Below the pieces are notes generated by a model. The model saw nothing but the letters and a program-made list of their open reading frames with translations, was not told the origin of the DNA and searched no databases. A stretch of DNA of 64,000 nt. Origin: Candidatus Bathyarchaeota archaeon (GTDB lineage: Archaea; Thermoproteota; Bathyarchaeia; Bathyarchaeales; WUQV01). The position numbers and the translations under genes are program-made. Of the stretch, positions 51,027 to 59,467 are shown one piece after another; the stretch's first letter is position 1, and every line of letters begins with the position of its first letter. The stretch is taken from the NCBI GenBank assembly GCA_021158125.1, contig JAGGVF010000012.1, positions 91,612 to 155,611 on the forward strand. The letters are read 5' to 3'.

Positions 51027-51434
51027 ATGTCAAGAATAGGAATAATAACAAACAATGCATTCCAATTAGCGAAAACCGCAGAAATAAGAAATTCAAAAGT
51101 AATAATGCTAGAAAAAGCAGAAATGCTAACAAAACTCTACAAACAACTCACACAAAATTTCCTTGATATAATAATTCTCAAAAAACTAAGAAAAAGAAAA
51201 ATGAGACTCTGCGAACTGTCAAAGTCGCTTAAAAGAGAATTTTACATATCAATCGATACAAAAAAGTTACATAAAACAGTTAAATCCATGAAGGACAAGA
51301 AACTTCTAGAAATCTGCGAAATTAACGGCAGAAAGTTTTATTGCCTAACCAATGAAGGGGAGAGAACAGTTGAGACTATTCGAAGACTAGAAGACCAAAT
51401 TCACGAAATAGTTTTAAACGCTGTTCCAAGCTAG
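51027..51434 (+). CDS. Winged-helix (PadR-like) transcriptional regulator
   Basis: FLDIIILKKLRKRKMRLCELSKSLKREF...KLHKTVKSMKDKKLLEI...KFYCLTNEGERTVE. Confidence 0.5.
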   Translation: MSRIGIITNNAFQLAKTAEIRNSKVIMLEKAEMLTKLYKQLTQNFLDIIILKKLRKRKMRLCELSKSLKREFYISIDTKKLHKTVKSMKDKKLLEICEINGRKFYCLTNEGERTVETIRRLEDQIHEIVLNAVPS

Positions 51435-52077: not shown

Positions 52078-52155
52078 GCCCTGGTAGTATAGCCCGGTCT
52101 AGTATAGGCGGCTGTCGCCCGCCCGACCCGGGTTCAAATCCCGGCCAGGGCGCCA
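52078..52155 (+). tRNA. tRNA-Asp (anticodon GUC), intron-less, encoded CCA
   Basis: Hand fold. Acceptor GCCCUGG/CCAGGGC. D stem GUAU/GUAU (2 G-U pairs). Anticodon arm GGCGG-CUGUCGC-CCGCC. T arm CCGGG-UUCAAAU-CCCGG. Ends G-CCA. Confidence 0.88.
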
Positions 52156-52291: not shown

Positions 52292-52299
52292 TTTATAAA
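52292..52299 (+). promoter_or_regulatory. Candidate TATA box upstream of the TasA-like locus
   Basis: TTTATAAA lies ~32 nt upstream of ATG 52331, followed by the purine run GGAGAAGGGAGGGAGAAGG (SD-like). Confidence 0.3.
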
Positions 52300-52330
52300 T
52301 TCTGCAGGAGAAGGGAGGGAGAAGGAAAAT

Positions 52331-52942
52331 ATGGACAAAAAAATATTGGTTAGTATTATGGTAATCGGCTTAGTTGCAGCATTGGCAGGAGCAGGATTAT
52401 ACGCCTATTTCAGCGACACAGAAACAAGCACGGGAAACAAATTCAAGGCTGGAACATTAAACTTGAGAGTTGGAGGTAATGACCCAACAACTTGGCATGT
52501 AACGATATCCAATATCAAACCAGGAGACAATGGCACTATAGAAGTTCCATTTACAGTTGAGGGCACTATGAAAGGCTACGTTGATGTTAAAATAACAAAC
52601 ATACAGAATTCTGGAGGATCAACACCTGAACCGGAACCTACACCAGATAATGGTGAGCTAGGTAGTGAACTGCTAGTCACTGCGATACAGATGAACTCTT
52701 GGAAGATGAAGTGGAGTACCCCTAAGAGCTTTAACGACTTGAATGATATATGGTGGTGGAAGAATGGTCTCCTGGGAGCGTTTCCAGTAGACGGTTTGAC
52801 ATATACTCCGCCATACACAGATTCCATTAAAATATTCTGGGAATTACCTGAAACTGTTGGTAACGATGTTCAAGGCGACATACTGACATTTGACATCGAG
52901 TTTACACTGACTCAAGGAACATCGGGCATAGAAGTCCGTTAG
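52331..52942 (+). CDS. TasA/camelysin-like secreted fibre protein, paralogue 1 (SipW-type signal peptide)
   Basis: MDKKILVSIMVIGLVAALAGAGLYA|YFSDTETSTGNKFKAGTLNL is the N-terminal signature of the TasA/CalY (peptidase M73) class. C-terminal GNDVQGDILTFDIEFTLTQ. Confidence 0.75.
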   Translation: MDKKILVSIMVIGLVAALAGAGLYAYFSDTETSTGNKFKAGTLNLRVGGNDPTTWHVTISNIKPGDNGTIEVPFTVEGTMKGYVDVKITNIQNSGGSTPEPEPTPDNGELGSELLVTAIQMNSWKMKWSTPKSFNDLNDIWWWKNGLLGAFPVDGLTYTPPYTDSIKIFWELPETVGNDVQGDILTFDIEFTLTQGTSGIEVR

Positions 52943-52976
52943 ACTCCAAAAACCATCAATCTAGCAGTGACTTTCA

Positions 52977-53651
52977 ATGAAGAAAACTGATGCATTGATC
53001 CTGAGCATTGCGGTGATACTCTTAGCTAGTCTACTCGCTGGAACTGGTTTATACGCCTATTTCAGCGACACAGAGACTTCGAGTGGGAACATATTTAATG
53101 CTGGAACTTTGGATTTGAAGCTTAGTCATAGCAGTACTGGTCCGTGGACTGATGGAGTCACAGCTACATGGACTTTATCGGACATGAAGCCTGGAGACGA
53201 AACATCACTTGCTTGTGTTTTCTTCAAGAATTTTGGTTTAGTGCCTTCAAGCACTATGACTATAACTTGCGAGTATAGCGTGGAAGAAAAAACTAATCCT
53301 GTGGAGTCGGACACTGACCCATATACTAATAAACACCCGGACGAGATGGCAAAATACATGGTCATCACTTGGATGAAGTATAGAAACGACGAAGTTGATA
53401 TCAACTGCTTAACAGGAGAGAATAATGGTTATCCTTCCAATGAAGAGTGGAAGATAAGCGACATGGATGGAGATGGAAGGATAACCTTATACGATTTGAA
53501 AATGGATACATTGGTTAATCTCCCATCACCAGACACGCAAACAAATGGAATAACACAGCTTGACATGAAAATCATGTTTGACACAAGCGCTGGCAACGAC
53601 TTTCAAGGGGACATCTTTAACTTGACAATAATCTTCACCCTAAAGCAATAG
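52977..53651 (+). CDS. TasA/camelysin-like secreted fibre protein, paralogue 2, with EF-hand/dockerin-like loop
   Basis: ...LLAGTGLYA|YFSDTETSSGNIFNAGTLDL; C-terminal GNDFQGDIFNLTIIFTLKQ; internal DMDGDGRITLYDL. Confidence 0.75.
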   Translation: MKKTDALILSIAVILLASLLAGTGLYAYFSDTETSSGNIFNAGTLDLKLSHSSTGPWTDGVTATWTLSDMKPGDETSLACVFFKNFGLVPSSTMTITCEYSVEEKTNPVESDTDPYTNKHPDEMAKYMVITWMKYRNDEVDINCLTGENNGYPSNEEWKISDMDGDGRITLYDLKMDTLVNLPSPDTQTNGITQLDMKIMFDTSAGNDFQGDIFNLTIIFTLKQ

Positions 53652-53719
53652 AACAAGCCAGCATAAAACCCAATATATAAACCCTCTTATCTTCCCTTTT
53701 TATAAGTTAATAAGCAGAA

Positions 53720-54229
53720 GTGATTCATTTGAGGAAAACAGTTAAAGAGGCAGTATCCATCATTACAATTATCGCCTTACTATCTCCAATCTTAATTTGC
53801 TTGATTACCCCACTCTTTGTCGGCGGCTTCTTCAGCGTCATTATGTCAGGCAGCATGGAGCCGACAATCCCGGTCGGCAGCGTAGTAATAGTTAAGAAGG
53901 TTAACCCAGAAGACGTAAAGGTCGGCGACATCATAGCCTTCAAAACGGGTGAATCAAGAACCGTACACAGAGTAGTTGAGAAGATTGTTGAAGACGGCTC
54001 CTTCTATTTTAAGACCAAAGGAGATGCCAACGAGAAACCTGACCCTTGGATTGTTAAGCCTGAAGACATCTGCGGAGCCCTAATGTTGACGATACCTTAC
54101 TACGGCTATTTAATATGGTTTGCCAGAACGCCCATAGGCATTGTGACTTTTATTCTCGTTCCAGCAATAATCCTTATAGTAAACGAGATCAGAAACATTC
54201 TTAAGTATAGAAAGGGCGTGAAAGGTTGA
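53720..54229 (+). CDS. Signal peptidase I, archaeal/ER (SipW) type
   Basis: N-terminal TM segment; SGSMEPT (catalytic Ser box); VHRV (His box); KGDANEKPD (box D); C-terminal TM segment. Confidence 0.85.
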   Translation: MIHLRKTVKEAVSIITIIALLSPILICLITPLFVGGFFSVIMSGSMEPTIPVGSVVIVKKVNPEDVKVGDIIAFKTGESRTVHRVVEKIVEDGSFYFKTKGDANEKPDPWIVKPEDICGALMLTIPYYGYLIWFARTPIGIVTFILVPAIILIVNEIRNILKYRKGVKG

Positions 54230-55641
54230 AAAGAAAATTTTTAGTTCTGCTTTTAACTATTGGATTTATAGGAACGGTTTTCGGAACCTTCCTTCACGCC
54301 TACTTCTCCGATGTAGAGAGAAGCCAAGAAAACATCTTCCAGGCTGGAAAGTGGCCAGCCCTAAACGCAACTAAGGGATTTAAAGTTCCAAAGCCAAACG
54401 AAAACGGAAAATATTGGCTTAACCTTACTGTTGAAAACAATACTGGCATAATTCTTGCGGCAGTTCCGCCAATCTTCATGCCCCAAATTAACATAACAAA
54501 TACATGTAAGTTCAACATCAGCAAAGTTGAAATCCTCGATTATCTCCCAAAGGACTGGGCATGGAAAAACATAACCCTTCTATTCCTATACACTGACGGA
54601 AAAGTGTGCCCCATAGTTCCTCCACACTACGAAGTCAATTATAACCCTAAAACAAGGCTGCTAAACGTCACCATAGCCAACATAACGTCAGCCATAGGAA
54701 AACCAATGGAGCAGGATGAAAAAATAGAGCTAGCATTCCTAATGTGGTACAACCTAACAGGAAAACGCCTACCAGAAGAATATCGAATTCAACCTCCAAC
54801 CTATGTGAACGCTGCAAAAGCAACAGCCTGGAGTACAGAAGGTACAAAATCAAACGTGGCTGAGACTTCAACCGAAATAAAGACTCAGATAAAACTGGTT
54901 GACAGAATACACGACGCGATCGAATTCTTGAAGGGCATGTACAATTCGACAGTTGGGCTGTGTGCTGAAGCGCCCAGAGTTGCACCCAACACTTACTGGC
55001 TTGTAAGCGATAATCTCTGGGCTTCCAAAGCCTTGGAGAAATATTATTCGGAACTCTCAAACACTATAAAATTAAAGCTCATAGAATTGGCTGAGGCCTA
55101 TAACCTTCCAGTAAACAGCCAAGGCTTGCCAATAAGCTACAAACATGAAGCTGTCATTGGTAATGTCATACCCTTACCATTTAATAAAACCGTACCCTAC
55201 ACGTTGCACAGCAACAATTACACTTTAAAAACTGAAATAGCGAACGGAACGGCGGTAATAAAAGACTGGCAAGAATACGCTGACCTACTCCTTTTCGCGG
55301 CACTTTCAAAACACTGGGAAGGAAAAGACAATGAAGCCATAGCCCTATTCAACATGGCTAAAGTAATGTGGGACGGCACAGGAATAAACGATTATGCAAC
55401 AAAGGCTAATGGGAAATACGCAACATACAAGCTTGCACTACTGCTCTACGCATCAAAGGTTCTAAAGCAGAAGCTACCCTTCGAGGAAGAGTTGATAGCC
55501 ATTATATTTAGAATGCAAGACCAAGAAACAGGCGGGATAATAACAGACTATTATCCAAACGGAGAACCAGTAGAATATGCAGATGCAAATACGGAAACGA
55601 CATCAATAACCATAATAGCCCTAACATACGAAGCTGAATAA
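54226..55641 (+). CDS. Large secreted protein with the same SipW-type signal/TasA-like N-terminus plus a C-terminal helical-repeat domain
   Basis: MKRKFLVLLLTIGFIGTVFGTFLHA|YFSDVERSQENIFQAGKW. The N-terminal half has at least 9 N-x-S/T sequons. The C-terminal ~260 aa is rich in W/Y-containing helices (YWLVSDNLWASKALEKYY, LLLFAALSKHWEG, YKLALLLYASKVL). TTGA overlap with the peptidase gene. Confidence 0.6.
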   Translation: MKRKFLVLLLTIGFIGTVFGTFLHAYFSDVERSQENIFQAGKWPALNATKGFKVPKPNENGKYWLNLTVENNTGIILAAVPPIFMPQINITNTCKFNISKVEILDYLPKDWAWKNITLLFLYTDGKVCPIVPPHYEVNYNPKTRLLNVTIANITSAIGKPMEQDEKIELAFLMWYNLTGKRLPEEYRIQPPTYVNAAKATAWSTEGTKSNVAETSTEIKTQIKLVDRIHDAIEFLKGMYNSTVGLCAEAPRVAPNTYWLVSDNLWASKALEKYYSELSNTIKLKLIELAEAYNLPVNSQGLPISYKHEAVIGNVIPLPFNKTVPYTLHSNNYTLKTEIANGTAVIKDWQEYADLLLFAALSKHWEGKDNEAIALFNMAKVMWDGTGINDYATKANGKYATYKLALLLYASKVLKQKLPFEEELIAIIFRMQDQETGGIITDYYPNGEPVEYADANTETTSITIIALTYEAE

Positions 55642-55695: not shown

Positions 55696-56790
55696 TTAAT
55701 GGTTTTCTTTTAGGACTACTGGTTTTTTGCCGAGGTATTCTGCTGCTGTTAGAACTTTTTTATCCTTTTCTTTTGCTTTTTCGTAGACTTGACGAACTCT
55801 TTCTCTGTATTTTGGTTCTCTTAGTAGGTGGTGGTCATAAATTATTAGTTTAAGCCTTCTTGTTTCTTCTATTATTTTTACGGTGTTTTTTACTGTTCTT
55901 CTTAGGTTGATTAGGTTTAGCATGTAAGGTATTAGGTATGTGCTTGGGCCGTCTAGGATTAGGACGTTTGGGTCTTCTTTTATTATCCATTCTGCGTAGT
56001 CTTCGATTGTTGGCCCTTGCAGGTCTGACGTGTGGATTATTTTCTCGTCTTTATACGTGATCGCTGTTGCAATGACCCACCCAACCCTTGCGAATTCTAT
56101 TCCGTGGAAAAGCGGCTTAGTGAACTTGACAATTGTCTTTCCGAACTTGAATTCTCTTCCGTCCGCGAATTTAATTTGGCATTTTCTAAACTTTAGCTCT
56201 GGAATATGTTTGTAGGAATTCCATTTTTCAACTCTTGCTTGGAACCATTTCTTACCCTTTTCTAAAAGTTCCTTTTTTCTTGCGTTGTAGTCGCCGTAGT
56301 CTATGCTCATTGCAAGCGGTATTTCCTTAAGTGGATCTGGGTAATTCTTTCTTTCCTTTTCTTCTAGCAGGTTTTCGAGTTCTGTTTTGCCAAAAGCTGT
56401 ACATATGTTGTTGTAGAAGTTTTCTGCTCTTTTCCTTTGGGAATCGTTAATGTATTCGTTTGGGTTTTTTGCTAAAACGAGTTTTTCTTTGTATATGGCT
56501 TTGTCGAAGTCTGTGAAGTGGTCGTAGTGATAATGGGAGATAACTATGACTTCGGCTTTTTCCGACGCTTTCTTAACAGCCTTCTCAGCTTTTCTCAGCC
56601 AGTAAAGCTTCTTTGCCAAAGGCGCAGGAAAACTCGGCTGCATTACTGCTGCTCCAGGATCAATTAAAATTGAAACATCCGGAGTTTCCACTAAAGTGCA
56701 TGTTGACTTTGCGCCTAAAGAGTCGAACCAGACGAAGCTGAAACGTATATGTTTCATGATTTCCCGCTTGCCTTGCTTAAAGACTTCCAA
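55696..56790 (-). CDS. MBL-fold metallo-hydrolase
   Basis: VIVISHYHYDHF (HxHxDH), preceded by ILIDPGAA. The start is Met 56790 or Met 56757. Confidence 0.72.
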   Translation of the reverse strand: MEVFKQGKREIMKHIRFSFVWFDSLGAKSTCTLVETPDVSILIDPGAAVMQPSFPAPLAKKLYWLRKAEKAVKKASEKAEVIVISHYHYDHFTDFDKAIYKEKLVLAKNPNEYINDSQRKRAENFYNNICTAFGKTELENLLEEKERKNYPDPLKEIPLAMSIDYGDYNARKKELLEKGKKWFQARVEKWNSYKHIPELKFRKCQIKFADGREFKFGKTIVKFTKPLFHGIEFARVGWVIATAITYKDEKIIHTSDLQGPTIEDYAEWIIKEDPNVLILDGPSTYLIPYMLNLINLRRTVKNTVKIIEETRRLKLIIYDHHLLREPKYRERVRQVYEKAKEKDKKVLTAAEYLGKKPVVLKENH

Positions 56791-58147
56791 CCCTTTTCAG
56801 CCTATACCTTTCATAAATTAAGTCGACGTCTTTTCCGTCAACTATGAATTCTACCTTAAGCTTTCCACTGCCTTGAAGGGTATAAAACGTTTTTACACTT
56901 CCTTCCAAGTTTTCTGGGAAAAGAGGAATTACCTCCTCCATGTATTTGTCCTTAATTACTATGCATAAGAAAGAGCCTTTCTTTACTACTTGGGCGTCCA
57001 TTGTCCCCTTGTAGGTTTCATAGCGTCCAGTTAATGCTTCAAGCTGTTTTTCCATTTTTATGAATGGAAGTTCTTCAGGGTTTCTTCCAAGCATTAGTGC
57101 TAGTCCGTACATTCCCAACTGTGAAAGTGGGTAGCCGCTTCCGTTGGCTAGGAGGGCTATTCCAATTTTTCTTTCTGGAACATAGCCCATATAGGCCGTG
57201 GCTGTTAGAACCGAGCCGCCGTGCCCTACAAGCCTATAGCCTAAAAAGTTGGGAACAGTCATTAAGCCGTATCCGTAGGCTTCTCCGCCGAATACCTGAA
57301 TGGGCAGTTTTATCCTTGGCTTTTCCATTTCTTCTATAAGTTCTGAAGGTAATATTCTGTTTCCGTTGTATTCGCCGCGGTTAAGGTACATGGTTATGTA
57401 GCGGGCTAAGTCCATGACGTTGCTTATTAAGCCCCCGTCAGCTGTTAAAGAGTATACGTATCCAGACTCTTTTTGTTCCCCTTCCTTAGTTATGATGTAG
57501 GGAACAGCCGCATCCTTGTCTGCTTCAAGTTTTTCCCTTCCAAAAAATGTTCGGTTCATGCCTAAAGGCTCTAGAATATGTTTTCTTACATATTCTCTGT
57601 AATCCATTCCTGAAATCTTCTCTATAATATAGCCTAAAAGCAGATATCCCTCATTTAGGTAGAACCATCTTTCGCCGGGTTTTGTCACAGCCCATTTTTC
57701 AGCTTCTCTCATGAATGTAAAGAGTTCGTCATAGGTTGCCATTGGAATCCATTTTCCTCCGGCTCCAGTTGCATATCGAATAATAGCTTCTGCATAGGCT
57801 AGGGCGGGTATACCAGAAGAATGAGTTAGCAGATGCCAAACTCGAACTGGTTCACCCATACTTTTCAAGTCTAAAGGAGCATACTTGCCAACAGGGTCTT
57901 CTAAATTCAGTTTACCTTCATTAACTAGCTGCATTATTGAAAGTGCGGTGAAAGACTTTGTTACCGAACCTATTGCATATAACGTGTTCGCAGTAGCCCT
58001 AAATCCATAAGCCTTATTTCTAAGGCCGAATCCTTTGCTATAAACCACTTTTCCATCTTCAACCACTGCAACGCTAATTGCTGGCAAGTGAGTTTTAGAC
58101 ATACACTCAAAAAGGAAATCTTCAAACTTGCGGAATGCCTCCAACAA
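56777..58147 (-). CDS. Serine hydrolase, beta-lactamase/transpeptidase-like (class C/PBP4* family)
   Basis: SxxK motif in YAIGSVTKSFTALSIMQL. YLNEGY (Y-x-N-like) and HGGS near the C-terminal part of the catalytic domain. Confidence 0.78.
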   Translation of the reverse strand: MLEAFRKFEDFLFECMSKTHLPAISVAVVEDGKVVYSKGFGLRNKAYGFRATANTLYAIGSVTKSFTALSIMQLVNEGKLNLEDPVGKYAPLDLKSMGEPVRVWHLLTHSSGIPALAYAEAIIRYATGAGGKWIPMATYDELFTFMREAEKWAVTKPGERWFYLNEGYLLLGYIIEKISGMDYREYVRKHILEPLGMNRTFFGREKLEADKDAAVPYIITKEGEQKESGYVYSLTADGGLISNVMDLARYITMYLNRGEYNGNRILPSELIEEMEKPRIKLPIQVFGGEAYGYGLMTVPNFLGYRLVGHGGSVLTATAYMGYVPERKIGIALLANGSGYPLSQLGMYGLALMLGRNPEELPFIKMEKQLEALTGRYETYKGTMDAQVVKKGSFLCIVIKDKYMEEVIPLFPENLEGSVKTFYTLQGSGKLKVEFIVDGKDVDLIYERYRLKRVGSL

Positions 58148-58249: not shown

Positions 58250-59410
58250 ATGAGGTTTATGGCCATCAAAAAGGGCCTTTTAGCAATTGCCATAAGTCTT
58301 CTGACTGTTTCGATTTTTACGAGTATCCACGAAGTTGCAGCAAATGAAGATGACATGATGGTGGGGGCATATTATTACGTTTGGTGGGGAATCCCATTTA
58401 ATGATCATTGGAACGAAAGCATCAAATATACGCCTTTCCTTGGCAAATACAATTCAAGCGACCCCTTAACTGCCGAACGCCACATCATATGGGCGAAACA
58501 GCATGGAATCGACTTCTTCGCTATTTCATGGATGGGTAAGGGGAGATGGTTAAACTGGGATTTCGACGACATTGACTATAATCTTAAAGTTTTCCTTTCA
58601 GCAAAACATCTAGAAAATTTTAATTTCTGCATATTTTACGAAACAGTAATTGTTTTAAACACTTCTTTAAATGAAGGAAAGAATTTTACTGAAATTTTCA
58701 TTAATGACATGACATATGCTGCGGAAAATTATTTTCATCATCCCAGTTACTTGAAGATTGACGAAAAACCCGTAGTCTTTATTTATAACATTCCATACCT
58801 CTACAACAAATTGGGAACCGAAAAAGCCCAGAGTCTTCTTGGCTGGTTAAAAAGCGAATTTGACATTTACCTAGTAGGAGATGTAGGTGAAGGGCCTTCT
58901 CCAGAAAGTTTAAGCTCGGACTGGCTGTATGCCTTAGACGCAGTAACGAATTATTTCTTTTCTAATCCTTCGAGAGGATGGCATCAAATATTAGAAGATG
59001 CCAAGAATTATTATCCGCTTTGGCATTCAAGTATGAACTCCAGCGGAATAAGATTTATCCCAAATGTTTATCCAGGATTTAACAATACAGGACTAAAAAA
59101 CGTTTCTCATCCTGTTGTTTTGCCAGCTAACGCGTCAGCATTTAGAGAAATGCTGAACATAGCAATGAACAACACAGACAAAGAACTGAAAATGCTCATG
59201 ATAACATCTTGGAACGAATGGCTTGATGGAACAGCAATAGAGCCTTCCCTAGAATTTGGAGAAACATTCCTTCACATAATTTTGGAAATAGTACCGGAAC
59301 TTCTTTCAATTACCATTTTACTCTTTGTTATATCCATAACGATTGCCATAGCATATTATAAAGTAAACATCAAGAAAATCCTCCGAAGTGGCGGGCCCGG
59401 CGGGATTTGA
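58250..59410 (+). CDS. Membrane-anchored GH99-like glycoside hydrolase family protein
   Basis: N-terminal signal/anchor; GAYYYVWWG...GKYNSSDPLTAERHIIWAKQHGIDFFAISWMG...ITSWNEWLDGTAIEP; C-terminal TM segment LLSITILLFVISITIAIAYY. The last 22 nt overlap tRNA-Lys on the opposite strand. Confidence 0.6.
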   Translation: MRFMAIKKGLLAIAISLLTVSIFTSIHEVAANEDDMMVGAYYYVWWGIPFNDHWNESIKYTPFLGKYNSSDPLTAERHIIWAKQHGIDFFAISWMGKGRWLNWDFDDIDYNLKVFLSAKHLENFNFCIFYETVIVLNTSLNEGKNFTEIFINDMTYAAENYFHHPSYLKIDEKPVVFIYNIPYLYNKLGTEKAQSLLGWLKSEFDIYLVGDVGEGPSPESLSSDWLYALDAVTNYFFSNPSRGWHQILEDAKNYYPLWHSSMNSSGIRFIPNVYPGFNNTGLKNVSHPVVLPANASAFREMLNIAMNNTDKELKMLMITSWNEWLDGTAIEPSLEFGETFLHIILEIVPELLSITILLFVISITIAIAYYKVNIKKILRSGGPGGI

Positions 59411-59467
59411 ACCCGCGACCCCCGGGTTAAAAGCCCGGTGCTCTAATCCTTGCTGAGCTACGGGCCC
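59389..59467 (-). tRNA. tRNA-Lys (anticodon UUU), intron-less, encoded CCA
   Basis: The reverse complement folds as GGGCCCG-UA-GCUC-AGCAAGGAUUA-GAGC-A-CCGGG-CUUUUAA-CCCGG-GGGUC-GCGGG-UUCAAAU-CCCGC-CGGGCCC-G-CCA. Confidence 0.9.

Follow-up and report, generated by a model that had tools for sequence, protein, structure and literature searches.

Here we describe a four-gene cassette in a 64,000-nucleotide (nt) stretch of DNA, the window, from a Candidatus Bathyarchaeota archaeon (contig JAGGVF010000012.1, positions 91,612 to 155,611 of the forward strand). In order, it encodes two proteins of the TasA/camelysin family (g1 and g2), a signal peptidase I of the archaeal and endoplasmic reticulum (ER) type (g3), and a protein that joins the same kind of N-terminus to a different body (g4). 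The cassette is found again, with three or four substrates, on at least five independent metagenome contigs. Its probable product is an extracellular fibre of the TasA family that is exported through Sec, grows by donor-strand complementation and comes with its own processing enzyme. The original prediction, made from the sequence of this locus, had proposed such a donor-strand fibre and peptidase; the proposal is borne out by family membership, by the modelled fold of g1 and by synteny, while polymerisation itself would follow by homology.

As predicted, the four open reading frames (ORFs) lie at the positions given in Table 1, the third and fourth sharing 4 nt: the TTG start of g4 overlaps the stop codon of g3, an arrangement that suggests co-translation.

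Results

TasA-family proteins g1 and g2

Both g1 and g2 match the Pfam family PF12389 (Peptidase_M73, TasA/camelysin), at 49.4 and 45.5 bits respectively (the latter over g2 residues 11-224) against a gathering cut-off of 22.5 bits, and both pass the NCBIfam model of SipW-cognate signals, TIGR04088, at 34.0 and 30.1 bits against a cut-off of 19. These scores, like those of g3 below, are far beyond chance, and by these profile matches g1 and g2 are members of the TasA/camelysin family with SipW-cognate signals. An AlphaFold2 model of g1, built from a 93-sequence alignment (predicted local distance difference test, pLDDT, 77), has as its best Foldseek matches in the Protein Data Bank (PDB) the TasA fibre 8aur (E 2e-5, template-modelling score, TM, 0.41) and the TasA monomer 5of1 (E 6e-4, TM 0.32), and it also matches the Pyrobaculum AbpA filament 7ueg with a probability of 0.99. 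The search thus retrieved the TasA and AbpA structures that had been expected of it, and with moderate confidence the g1 model has a jelly-roll fold resembling solved TasA. Only TasA (2e-7) and AbpX (5.5e-4) were matched when the g1 family profile was compared with all PDB sequences, and in metagenomes, where g1 has hundreds of relatives, the routine labels are 'TasA family protein' and 'SipW-dependent-type signal peptide-containing protein'. The assignment of the two short ORFs to the TasA/CalY/camelysin class in the original prediction is therefore upheld by the profile matches and by the closeness of the g1 model to TasA.

The two proteins are 30% identical and have their N- and C-terminal strands in common. 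The C-terminal strand, GND(V/F)QGDI..(F/L).I.FTL.Q, is the one noticed originally, and together with the donor-strand residues it is the best conserved part of the family. This pattern bears on whether the proteins polymerise at all. Peptidase_M73 is named after a reported metalloprotease, the archaeal members of PF12389 are unstudied, and the g1 model, at moderate confidence, complements itself as a monomer, all of which would suit secreted envelope proteins that stay monomeric or associate loosely, or proteases of the camelysin type, without any fibre. We consider this highly improbable. The HExxH motif is found in none of the four proteins g1-g4, so that the name 'camelysin protease' is uninformative here and the protease reading was rejected; the closest solved structure to the g1 model is that of a fibre; and the conservation lies in the donor-strand residues and the C-terminal strand. 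Roske et al. placed the most conserved residues of Bacillaceae TasA-like proteins (camelysins) in the protomer interface (PMC10151520), and an AlphaFold monomer of AbpA likewise folds its own strand back, yet AbpA forms filaments (PMC9245690).

As a guess from gene order and variability, g1 is probably the major, surface-exposed fibre subunit and g2 a minor or second subunit that is conserved between loci. An insertion in the jelly roll of g2 holds an EF-hand/dockerin-like loop, which is kept in all g2 orthologues (DVDGDGRITLYD, DANHDGKISLYE, DVDEDGKITFFD, DGNGDGKISLYE) and is predicted to bind calcium. A true type I dockerin was considered and set aside: the match to Pfam Dockerin_1 (PF00404; E 0.01, 16.5 bits) is below the 22.9 cut-off, and there is one clear loop only, without the duplicated calcium segment, so that EF-hand/dockerin-like calcium loop is the best name. 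Mature g1 and g2 are acidic (13-16% Asp plus Glu), as are the subunits reported for calcium-responsive AbpX homologues (10.64898/2026.01.04.697558), and the g2 loop fits a calcium-responsive assembly. Each of the two proteins carries one N-glycosylation sequon.

A shared N-terminus in g1, g2 and g4

Each of g1, g2 and g4 opens with a basic n-region and a single N-terminal hydrophobic segment, which leads into LYAYFSDTETS.GN.F.AGTL in g1 and g2 and into LHAYFSDVERSQENIFQAGKW in g4. These features had been pointed out originally, and a permissive regular expression for the motif, applied to the six-frame translation of the whole 64 kb, matched at these three genes only. A SipW-type signal had been claimed for all three substrates; the claim stands for g1 and g2, and g4, at 15.1 bits, falls below the TIGR04088 cut-off, although its orthologues align to the TasA family over this region (see below).

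Aligned to TasA on the pattern F-x-D...F, the motif predicts SipW-type cleavage after A25 in g1 (A25/Y26) and g4 and after A27 in g2. Mature TasA starts at residue 28 with AFND (PMC10151520), so that AFND...F in TasA stands against YFSD...F in the cassette. The donor strand of TasA comprises residues 28-38, with F29, I32 and F39, and completes the next subunit (PMC9674648). An aromatic residue at mature position 2, an acidic one at position 4 and a second aromatic about ten residues on are found in g1 (YFSDTETSTGNKF), g2 (YFSDTETSSGNIF), g4 (YFSDVERSQENIF) and TasA (AFNDIKSKDATF), and the aromatic-2/acidic-4 rule has been reported as critical for the donor strand of AbpX homologues (10.64898/2026.01.04.697558).

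A 26-nt block is common to g1 and g2 and covers the predicted cleavage site as well as the first part of the putative donor strand. The identity is perfect, as originally noted, and no other word of at least 11 nt is shared by the genes. Its core, TTCAGCGACACAGA (TTC AGC GAC ACA GA), recurs in g1 and g2 at each of the three loci compared, and the extension specific to the window amounts to three or four synonymous sites at which the paralogues in loci L004 and L007 differ. Identical residues with a common choice of codons are enough to explain the block, whose evidential weight is modest. A gene-conversion or RNA-level signal was rejected as unnecessary, the core codons being common across loci, though a short gene-conversion tract is possible.

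The signal peptidase g3

The boxes SGSMEP (residue 43), HRV (83) and GDAN (101) of g3, with catalytic Ser45/His83/Asp102, and the N- and C-terminal membrane segments on either side (hydrophobic residues 7-46 and 129-162) agree with the original description. The protein is above the cut-offs of PF00717 and PF10502 and scores 114.8 bits on TIGR02228, the archaeal signal peptidase I model (cut-off 51.85), while it fails the bacterial Ser/Lys-type model TIGR02227 (35.3 bits, cut-off 47) and the Bacillus SipW equivalog NF046067 (102.4 bits, cut-off 190). Judged by these models and its boxes, g3 is an enzyme of the archaeal/ER Ser-His-Asp type, which the original prediction had expected, and is SipW-like in type and context without being a Bacillus SipW equivalog.

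TIGR02228 takes in archaeal signal peptidases in general, and together with the failed SipW equivalog cut-off this would allow g3 to be a housekeeping signal peptidase located here by chance and not dedicated to g1, g2 and g4. Its neighbourhood makes that quite improbable. All g3 relatives whose context was examined lie directly downstream of PF12389 genes: three at 53-74% identity follow such genes immediately, the most distant of them (53%) still after at least two, and the peptidases of loci reached through g4 or g1 (72-78% identity) hold the same position. About 11 further peptidase matches may share contigs with TasA-like matches, a weak and indirect indication, and the start-stop overlap of g3 and g4 points the same way. 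A dedicated SipW-like peptidase remains the better account of g3.

Conservation of the cassette

Related loci were reached through homologues of g4, g3 or g1 (Table 1). The order of two TasA-like genes, peptidase and an overlapping g4-type gene is found in L004-L006, L007, L021 and L023 and in part in L024 and L025, so that the cassette is kept as a unit on related metagenome contigs, as the original prediction had anticipated, and wherever a locus has a gene in the g4 position it overlaps the stop of the peptidase gene. The conserved core consists of subunits and peptidase; the gene after the peptidase always encodes a signal, a donor strand and a β-sandwich, and the α-helical domain of g4 is an optional add-on. 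All identifiable relatives in the locus comparison are from metagenome-assembled genomes (MAGs) of Bathyarchaeia/Bathyarchaeota. A scan of genome contigs with the single g4 protein gave no match, and one with a g4 alignment gave 13 loci, mostly relatives of the C-terminal domain only, with no cassette in GTDB species representatives.

One g4 orthologue, in L001, lies alone beside HerA/NurA and carries a degraded motif; it serves as a natural control in which the motif decays away from the cassette, and the decay is consistent with relaxed selection after uncoupling. Two proteins, P0013 and P0014, represent this g4 type, the latter a variant with a deletion in the β-domain.

Orthologues of g2 occur in L004, L007, L021, L023 and L024 (79% identity in L007). 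The first 45 residues of g1 are 78-84% identical between loci, and the remainder only 23-27%. In L007, g2, g3 and g4 are 77-82% identical to their window counterparts against about 39-47% for g1, whereas in L024 it is g1 that is closest, at 90.6% against 75-79% for g2 and g3 (regions compared: window 52466-52942, the g1 body; L024:503-1114; L007:4098-4775; L004:3999-4592). From these identities, the g1 body looks like the target of swapping by recombination, or of diversifying selection that acts on a major subunit at the surface, much as in pilins and flagellins. Length also varies in g2: orthologues of 396-397 amino acids (L004:4626-5816 and L023:4747-5940) are longer by some 170 inserted residues that follow directly on the donor-strand region, and their remainder matches the window g2.

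Near the L021 cassette, at a distance of 3-4 kb, are aspartic-protease, large-terminase and portal genes (L021:9809-12510), which suggests a provirus or virus-like region, and a DDE transposase gene lies just upstream of the L004 cassette (L004:2337-3338). In some genomes, mobile DNA may often be a neighbour of the cassette.

The probable accessory protein g4

The original prediction had made g4 a third TasA-type substrate fused to an enzyme-like domain. The signal and donor strand support the first part of this; the body does not belong to the TasA family. No PF12389 match was found for g4, which is why we do not count it as a family member, and no Pfam family of any kind matched. Compared with the TasA family by hhalign, g4 orthologues align with 97.9% probability (E 4e-13) over residues 1-78 only, from the signal through the donor strand to the first strands; with families trimmed of the N-terminal part, the probability against TasA bodies is 1.4%. 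The 13 full-length g4 orthologues are 69-82% identical, and 12 of them keep LHAYFSD(V/L)ERS.GN.FQAG.WP almost unchanged.

Beyond this N-terminus lie a β-sandwich and an α-helical domain (Table 1). The AlphaFold2 model of the β-domain is β-rich and of low confidence (pLDDT 50-65), with integrin calf, macroglobulin-domain proteins, cohesins and AgI/II C-domains as Foldseek neighbours, and an exhaustive phmmer search with it returned standalone homologues of 220-235 amino acids together with weak matches of the DUF11/NEW3/CARDB type. The hhalign probability above gives no support to a divergent TasA jelly roll, though with so poor a model one may still be present. The 13 N-glycosylation sequons of g4, nine of them within the β-domain, point to a surface-exposed protein.

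The α-domain is modelled with confidence and its invariant residues, mostly polar, include E248, D262, N263, D383, K402, Q431, Y442, N455 and E457; its profile found no relative among all PDB sequences and no Pfam family. More than 200 homologues exist, many of them in Bathyarchaeota proteins of about 800 amino acids and many fused to PF14307/PF16317 (WbsX/GH99), GH71, dockerin or CARDB, several with true dockerin domains; the domain is also found in Heimdallarchaeota, Planctomycetota and Armatimonadota MAGs. Downstream of g4, the window itself encodes a GH99/WbsX-like protein with an N-terminal signal and a C-terminal membrane anchor. In P0105, a Bathyarchaeota protein of 812 amino acids, a homologue of the α-domain (50% identity) is fused to a homologue of this protein (27-31%), so that both halves of P0105 have counterparts encoded 2.6 kb apart in the window. 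The adjacency of g4 and the GH99-like ORF is not kept in the related loci.

These fusions raise the question of whether g4 belongs to the fibre. It could be an independent secreted protein that acts on or binds glycans, with YFSD.E.S..N.F.AG serving as a recognition determinant for the peptidase and not as a donor strand: TIGR04088 models the YFSD region as part of a signal-peptide class, the α-domain occurs mostly in proteins without a TasA link, including membrane-anchored GH99/WbsX fusions, one orthologue survives outside the cassette (L001), and without its N-terminus g4 retains no similarity to PF12389. Yet the conserved segment runs some 16-20 residues past the predicted cleavage site, exactly over the residues that form the donor strand in TasA (PMC9674648). 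The gene in the g4 position, moreover, always bears the motif, whether what follows is a CARDB-like protein of 164 amino acids, a β-only one of 226 or the full 465-488, and the motif has decayed in the copy away from the cassette. There is also a precedent for the layout in TapA (PMC10151520), and we regard a g4 outside the fibre as unlikely.

The layout of g4 matches that of TapA in its SipW-type signal, donor-strand-like N-terminus, non-TasA β-sandwich (on a low-confidence model) and a gene overlapping that of the peptidase. No TapA family is among the Pfam and NCBIfam matches of g4, although whether either library has a TapA model is unconfirmed. From this layout and from the start codon overlapping the stop of g3, we take g4 to be a functional analogue of TapA/AbpB without filing it in the TapA family. 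By this analogy, the label of a TapA/AbpB-like accessory protein suits g4 better than that of a third fibre subunit fused to an enzyme.

A model of fibre assembly

In the assembly that we propose, g1, g2 and g4 would be made with SipW-type signal peptides and exported through Sec, and the membrane peptidase g3 would cut them after the conserved Ala by means of its Ser-His-Asp triad. The N-terminal strand of g1 or g2 would then enter the jelly roll of the next subunit, giving a head-to-tail polymer as in TasA fibres. The abundant, surface-exposed subunit would be g1, its body exchanged between strains, and g2 would be the conserved second subunit with a calcium-binding loop. Most likely in the manner of Bacillus TapA or Pyrobaculum AbpB, g4 would donate the first strand, start the fibre and sit at one end, a role that we infer from its having the same donor strand but a different β-sandwich. 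Its α-domain, common to membrane-anchored GH99/WbsX-like surface proteins, would then tie the fibre end to glycans, either of the cell's own envelope (as an anchor) or of a substrate (as an adhesin).

Several points weigh against this account. The case for donor-strand complementation is one of homology, and none of the archaeal PF12389 proteins in the TasA-proper cluster has yet been studied by experiment (10.64898/2026.01.04.697558). The g1 model, with its pLDDT of 77 and TM of 0.41 to TasA, is of moderate quality, and gene order and variability allow no more than a guess that g1 rather than g2 is the major subunit. It is synteny that makes g3 appear dedicated. The β-domain of g4, modelled at low confidence, may be either a closed Ig fold, suited to an initiator only, or a divergent jelly roll that accepts a strand.

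A more elaborate version of the fibre can also be imagined, namely a modular, strain-variable extracellular scaffold, cellulosome-like or a glycan-anchored TasA fibre, in place of a plain matrix fibre. We think it quite doubtful. If it were true, the g4 starter would tether a carbohydrate-active or glycan-binding α-domain to the fibre end, g2 would contribute its dockerin-like calcium loop, g1 would be swapped between strains like a pilin or flagellin allele, and the host lineage would be one of uncultured, polymer-degrading archaea.

Comparison with known systems

The likeness to B. subtilis tapA-sipW-tasA and archaeal AbpA drawn in the original prediction is supported by the protein family, the type of peptidase and the fold of g1. 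The B. subtilis operon, like the cassette, has PF12389 subunits with TIGR04088 signals, its own ER/archaeal-type signal peptidase that bears two membrane segments, and an accessory protein that shares only the signal and donor strand of the subunit before continuing into a β-sandwich. TapA has an N-terminus like the TasA donor strand and an already complete Ig fold, and it initiates fibres (PMC10151520, PMC9674648); it is thought to donate the first strand, only at the fibre start, and the stop of tapA overlaps the start of sipW (PMC10151520), so that in both systems the accessory and peptidase genes overlap at start and stop. The gene order differs, however, being accessory-peptidase-subunit in B. 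subtilis and subunit-subunit-peptidase-accessory here, and the archaeal cassettes have two or three subunit paralogues. In addition to its missing TapA match, g4 departs from TapA in its extra 245-residue α-helical domain, g3 is below the SipW equivalog cut-off (102 against 190 bits), and the host of the cassette is an archaeon, which lacks peptidoglycan. The sipW-tasA-calY locus of Bacillus cereus, with two TasA/camelysin paralogues beside sipW, is like the cassette in that respect; it is bacterial and is not known to include a TapA-like accessory gene.

Among Archaea, AbpA/AbpB of Pyrobaculum calidifontis also form a fibre of the TasA superfamily by donor-strand complementation, and AbpB, like g4, is a downstream multi-domain β-rich TapA-like protein proposed as filament starter or adhesin (PMC9245690). 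Whereas g1 and g2 match PF12389 directly, AbpA is found only by profile or structure comparison; its operon has no dedicated signal peptidase, and AbpB consists of three β-domains with no α-domain. The AbpX-type loci of Thermoproteota resemble the cassette in having major and minor subunits, signal peptidase I and varied tip proteins, acidic subunits and an aromatic-2/acidic-4 donor strand, and AbpX assembly responds to calcium (10.64898/2026.01.04.697558). In contrast, TasA proper is a closer relative of g1 and g2 than AbpX is, ten membrane helices are described for the AbpX-linked peptidase against two hydrophobic segments in g3, and DUF5305, an accessory family of AbpX loci, had no match among the neighbouring genes scanned. 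Haloarchaeal tafi and bundling pili (PMC11821415, PMC12337348) are archaeal filaments too, built by strand donation from several types of subunit and with a tip or adhesin predicted; their export is by Tat, whereas the cassette has Sec/SipW-type signals without a twin-arginine motif.

The suggestion that a three-substrate version is unprecedented in this kind of archaeon goes too far: homologues from lineage B26-1 and similar archaeal loci have been published, and related loci hold three or four substrates. GTDB assigns B26-1 to Bathyarchaeia. Surveying PF12389 across GTDB, Wang et al. (2022) found TasA homologues to be fairly widespread in archaea and, within Thermoproteota, present in Caldarchaeales and the then unclassified lineage B26-1 (PMC9245690), and archaeal TasA-superfamily loci that combine signal peptidase I and minor subunits with tip proteins of diverse structure are the subject of a 2026 preprint (10.64898/2026.01.04.697558). 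A full-text literature search for Bathyarchaeota and TasA together returned nothing relevant. With TasA-type loci in archaea already published, the cassette is a well-supported but largely expected addition to a known system, and the gain is incremental rather than conceptual. What appears to be new is the TapA-like protein with an α-domain, the link of that domain to GH99/WbsX-like surface proteins, the calcium loop of g2 and the swapping of g1 alleles.

Bathyarchaeia are abundant, uncultured archaea of sediments and hot springs, and to our knowledge their cell surfaces and biofilm habits are almost unknown. The cassette, compact, conserved and suited to heterologous expression, is a candidate for showing the TasA/TapA/SipW assembly logic in archaea, and g4 with its modular extra domain could show how cells that lack a cell wall anchor or target a fibre. 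Selection on the fibre by viruses or neighbouring cells is suggested by the swapping of g1 alleles.

Genomic context

Table 1. Features of the cassette, its surroundings in the window, and related loci (positions are those of the window unless a locus is named; aa, amino acids)
Feature	Position	Strand	Description
g1	52331-52942	+	203 aa, TasA-family subunit ORF (role predicted)
g1 signal peptide	52331..52405	+	Predicted; residues 1-25; hydrophobic segment residues 1-28; TIGR04088 match residues 12-43
g1 predicted donor strand	52406..52453	+	YFSDTETSTGNKFKAG; aromatic at mature position 2, acidic at 4
26-nt block, copy 1	52397..52422	+	In g1; spans predicted cleavage site and donor-strand start
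g2	52977-53651	+	224 aa, TasA-family paralogue ORF
26-nt block, copy 2	53049..53074	+	In g2; exact match to 52397-52422
EF-hand/dockerin-like loop	53460..53495	+	DMDGDGRITLYD; g2 residues 162-173, insertion in jelly roll; predicted calcium binding
g3	53720-54229	+	169 aa, GTG start, archaeal/ER-type signal peptidase I (S26B)
g4	54226-55641	+	471 aa, TTG start, putative TapA/AbpB-like accessory protein
g4 signal peptide and TasA-like donor-strand segment	54226..54348	+	YFSDVERSQENIFQAG; predicted; residues 1-25 and 26-41
g4 β-sandwich domain	54358..54903	+	About residues 45-226; Ig/DUF11/CARDB-like
g4 C-terminal α-helical domain	54904..55638	+	Residues 227-471 (245 aa); pLDDT above 90
TATA-like element	52292..52299	+	TTTATAAA; 39 nt before g1 start codon; pattern inspection
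Purine-rich Shine-Dalgarno-like runs	52306-52317		Between TATA-like element and g1; pattern inspection
TATA-like element	53699..53705	+	About 21 nt before g3 GTG start, preceded by a T5 run; pattern inspection
Winged helix-turn-helix ORF	51027-51434		Weak winged-helix similarity; upstream of the cassette
tRNA-Asp(GTC)	52078-52155	+	176 nt upstream of g1
Metallo-β-lactamase-fold gene	55696-56790	-	End overlaps Pab87-type gene
Pab87-type gene	56777-58147	-	β-lactamase-fold serine β-lactamase/peptidase with octamerisation domain (PF00144 and PF13969)
GH99/WbsX-like ORF	58250-59410	+	386 aa; PF14307, PF16317
tRNA-Lys(TTT)	59389-59467	-	Overlaps 3' end of GH99-like ORF
L004-L006			Via g4, 75% identity; PF12389, PF12389, peptidase, overlapping g4 orthologue
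L007			Via g4, 82% identity; PF12389, PF12389, peptidase, g4 in the same four-gene order
L021			Via g3, 71% identity; four-gene order and a third TasA-like paralogue; four substrates
L024			Via g1, 90.6% identity; four-gene order; g2 split in two ORFs; g4 cut by contig end
L023			Via g3, 74% identity; gene overlapping peptidase of 164 aa with motif LYAYFCDVETSSGNVFSAGTW and CARDB-like domain
L025			Via g4 β-domain, 64% identity; overlapping gene a 226-aa β-domain-only g4 version
L022			Via g3, 53% identity; two PF12389 genes and peptidase; no fourth gene
L001 (contig shared with L008)	L001:7877-9271		Via g4, 69% identity; lone g4 orthologue beside HerA/NurA; degraded motif HVYLSNVKRKGGNSSQAEETP

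Inspection of the upstream DNA for patterns gives a TATA-like element as the putative promoter of g1-g2, and a second one ahead of g3 from which a separate, near-leaderless g3-g4 transcript possibly starts. Together the two elements could mean strong transcription of g1-g2 and weaker transcription of g3-g4, a difference that would match the low abundance of TapA and SipW.

The window is ordinary chromosome, encoding SecY, SMC, enolase, GluRS and POR, and its composition is not atypical. Two tRNA genes bracket a 7-kb stretch, without compositional anomaly, that contains the cassette and the metallo-β-lactamase-fold, Pab87-type and GH99-like genes. A mobile-element origin of the cassette was rejected on the strength of the ordinary chromosomal genes and composition, even though tRNA genes flank the stretch and phage or transposase genes lie close to two related loci. 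For the Pab87-type and metallo-β-lactamase-fold genes, which lie downstream on the opposite strand, no link to the cassette is evident.

The winged helix-turn-helix ORF upstream was considered as a conserved regulator and rejected, as BLASTP found no kinship to the HTH_45 genes of the related loci. Those HTH_45 winged-helix genes, which lie near the cassette at L007:1660-1995 (-), L021:2992-3258 and L023:12042-12323 (-), are related to one another (E 1e-11 to 2e-6).

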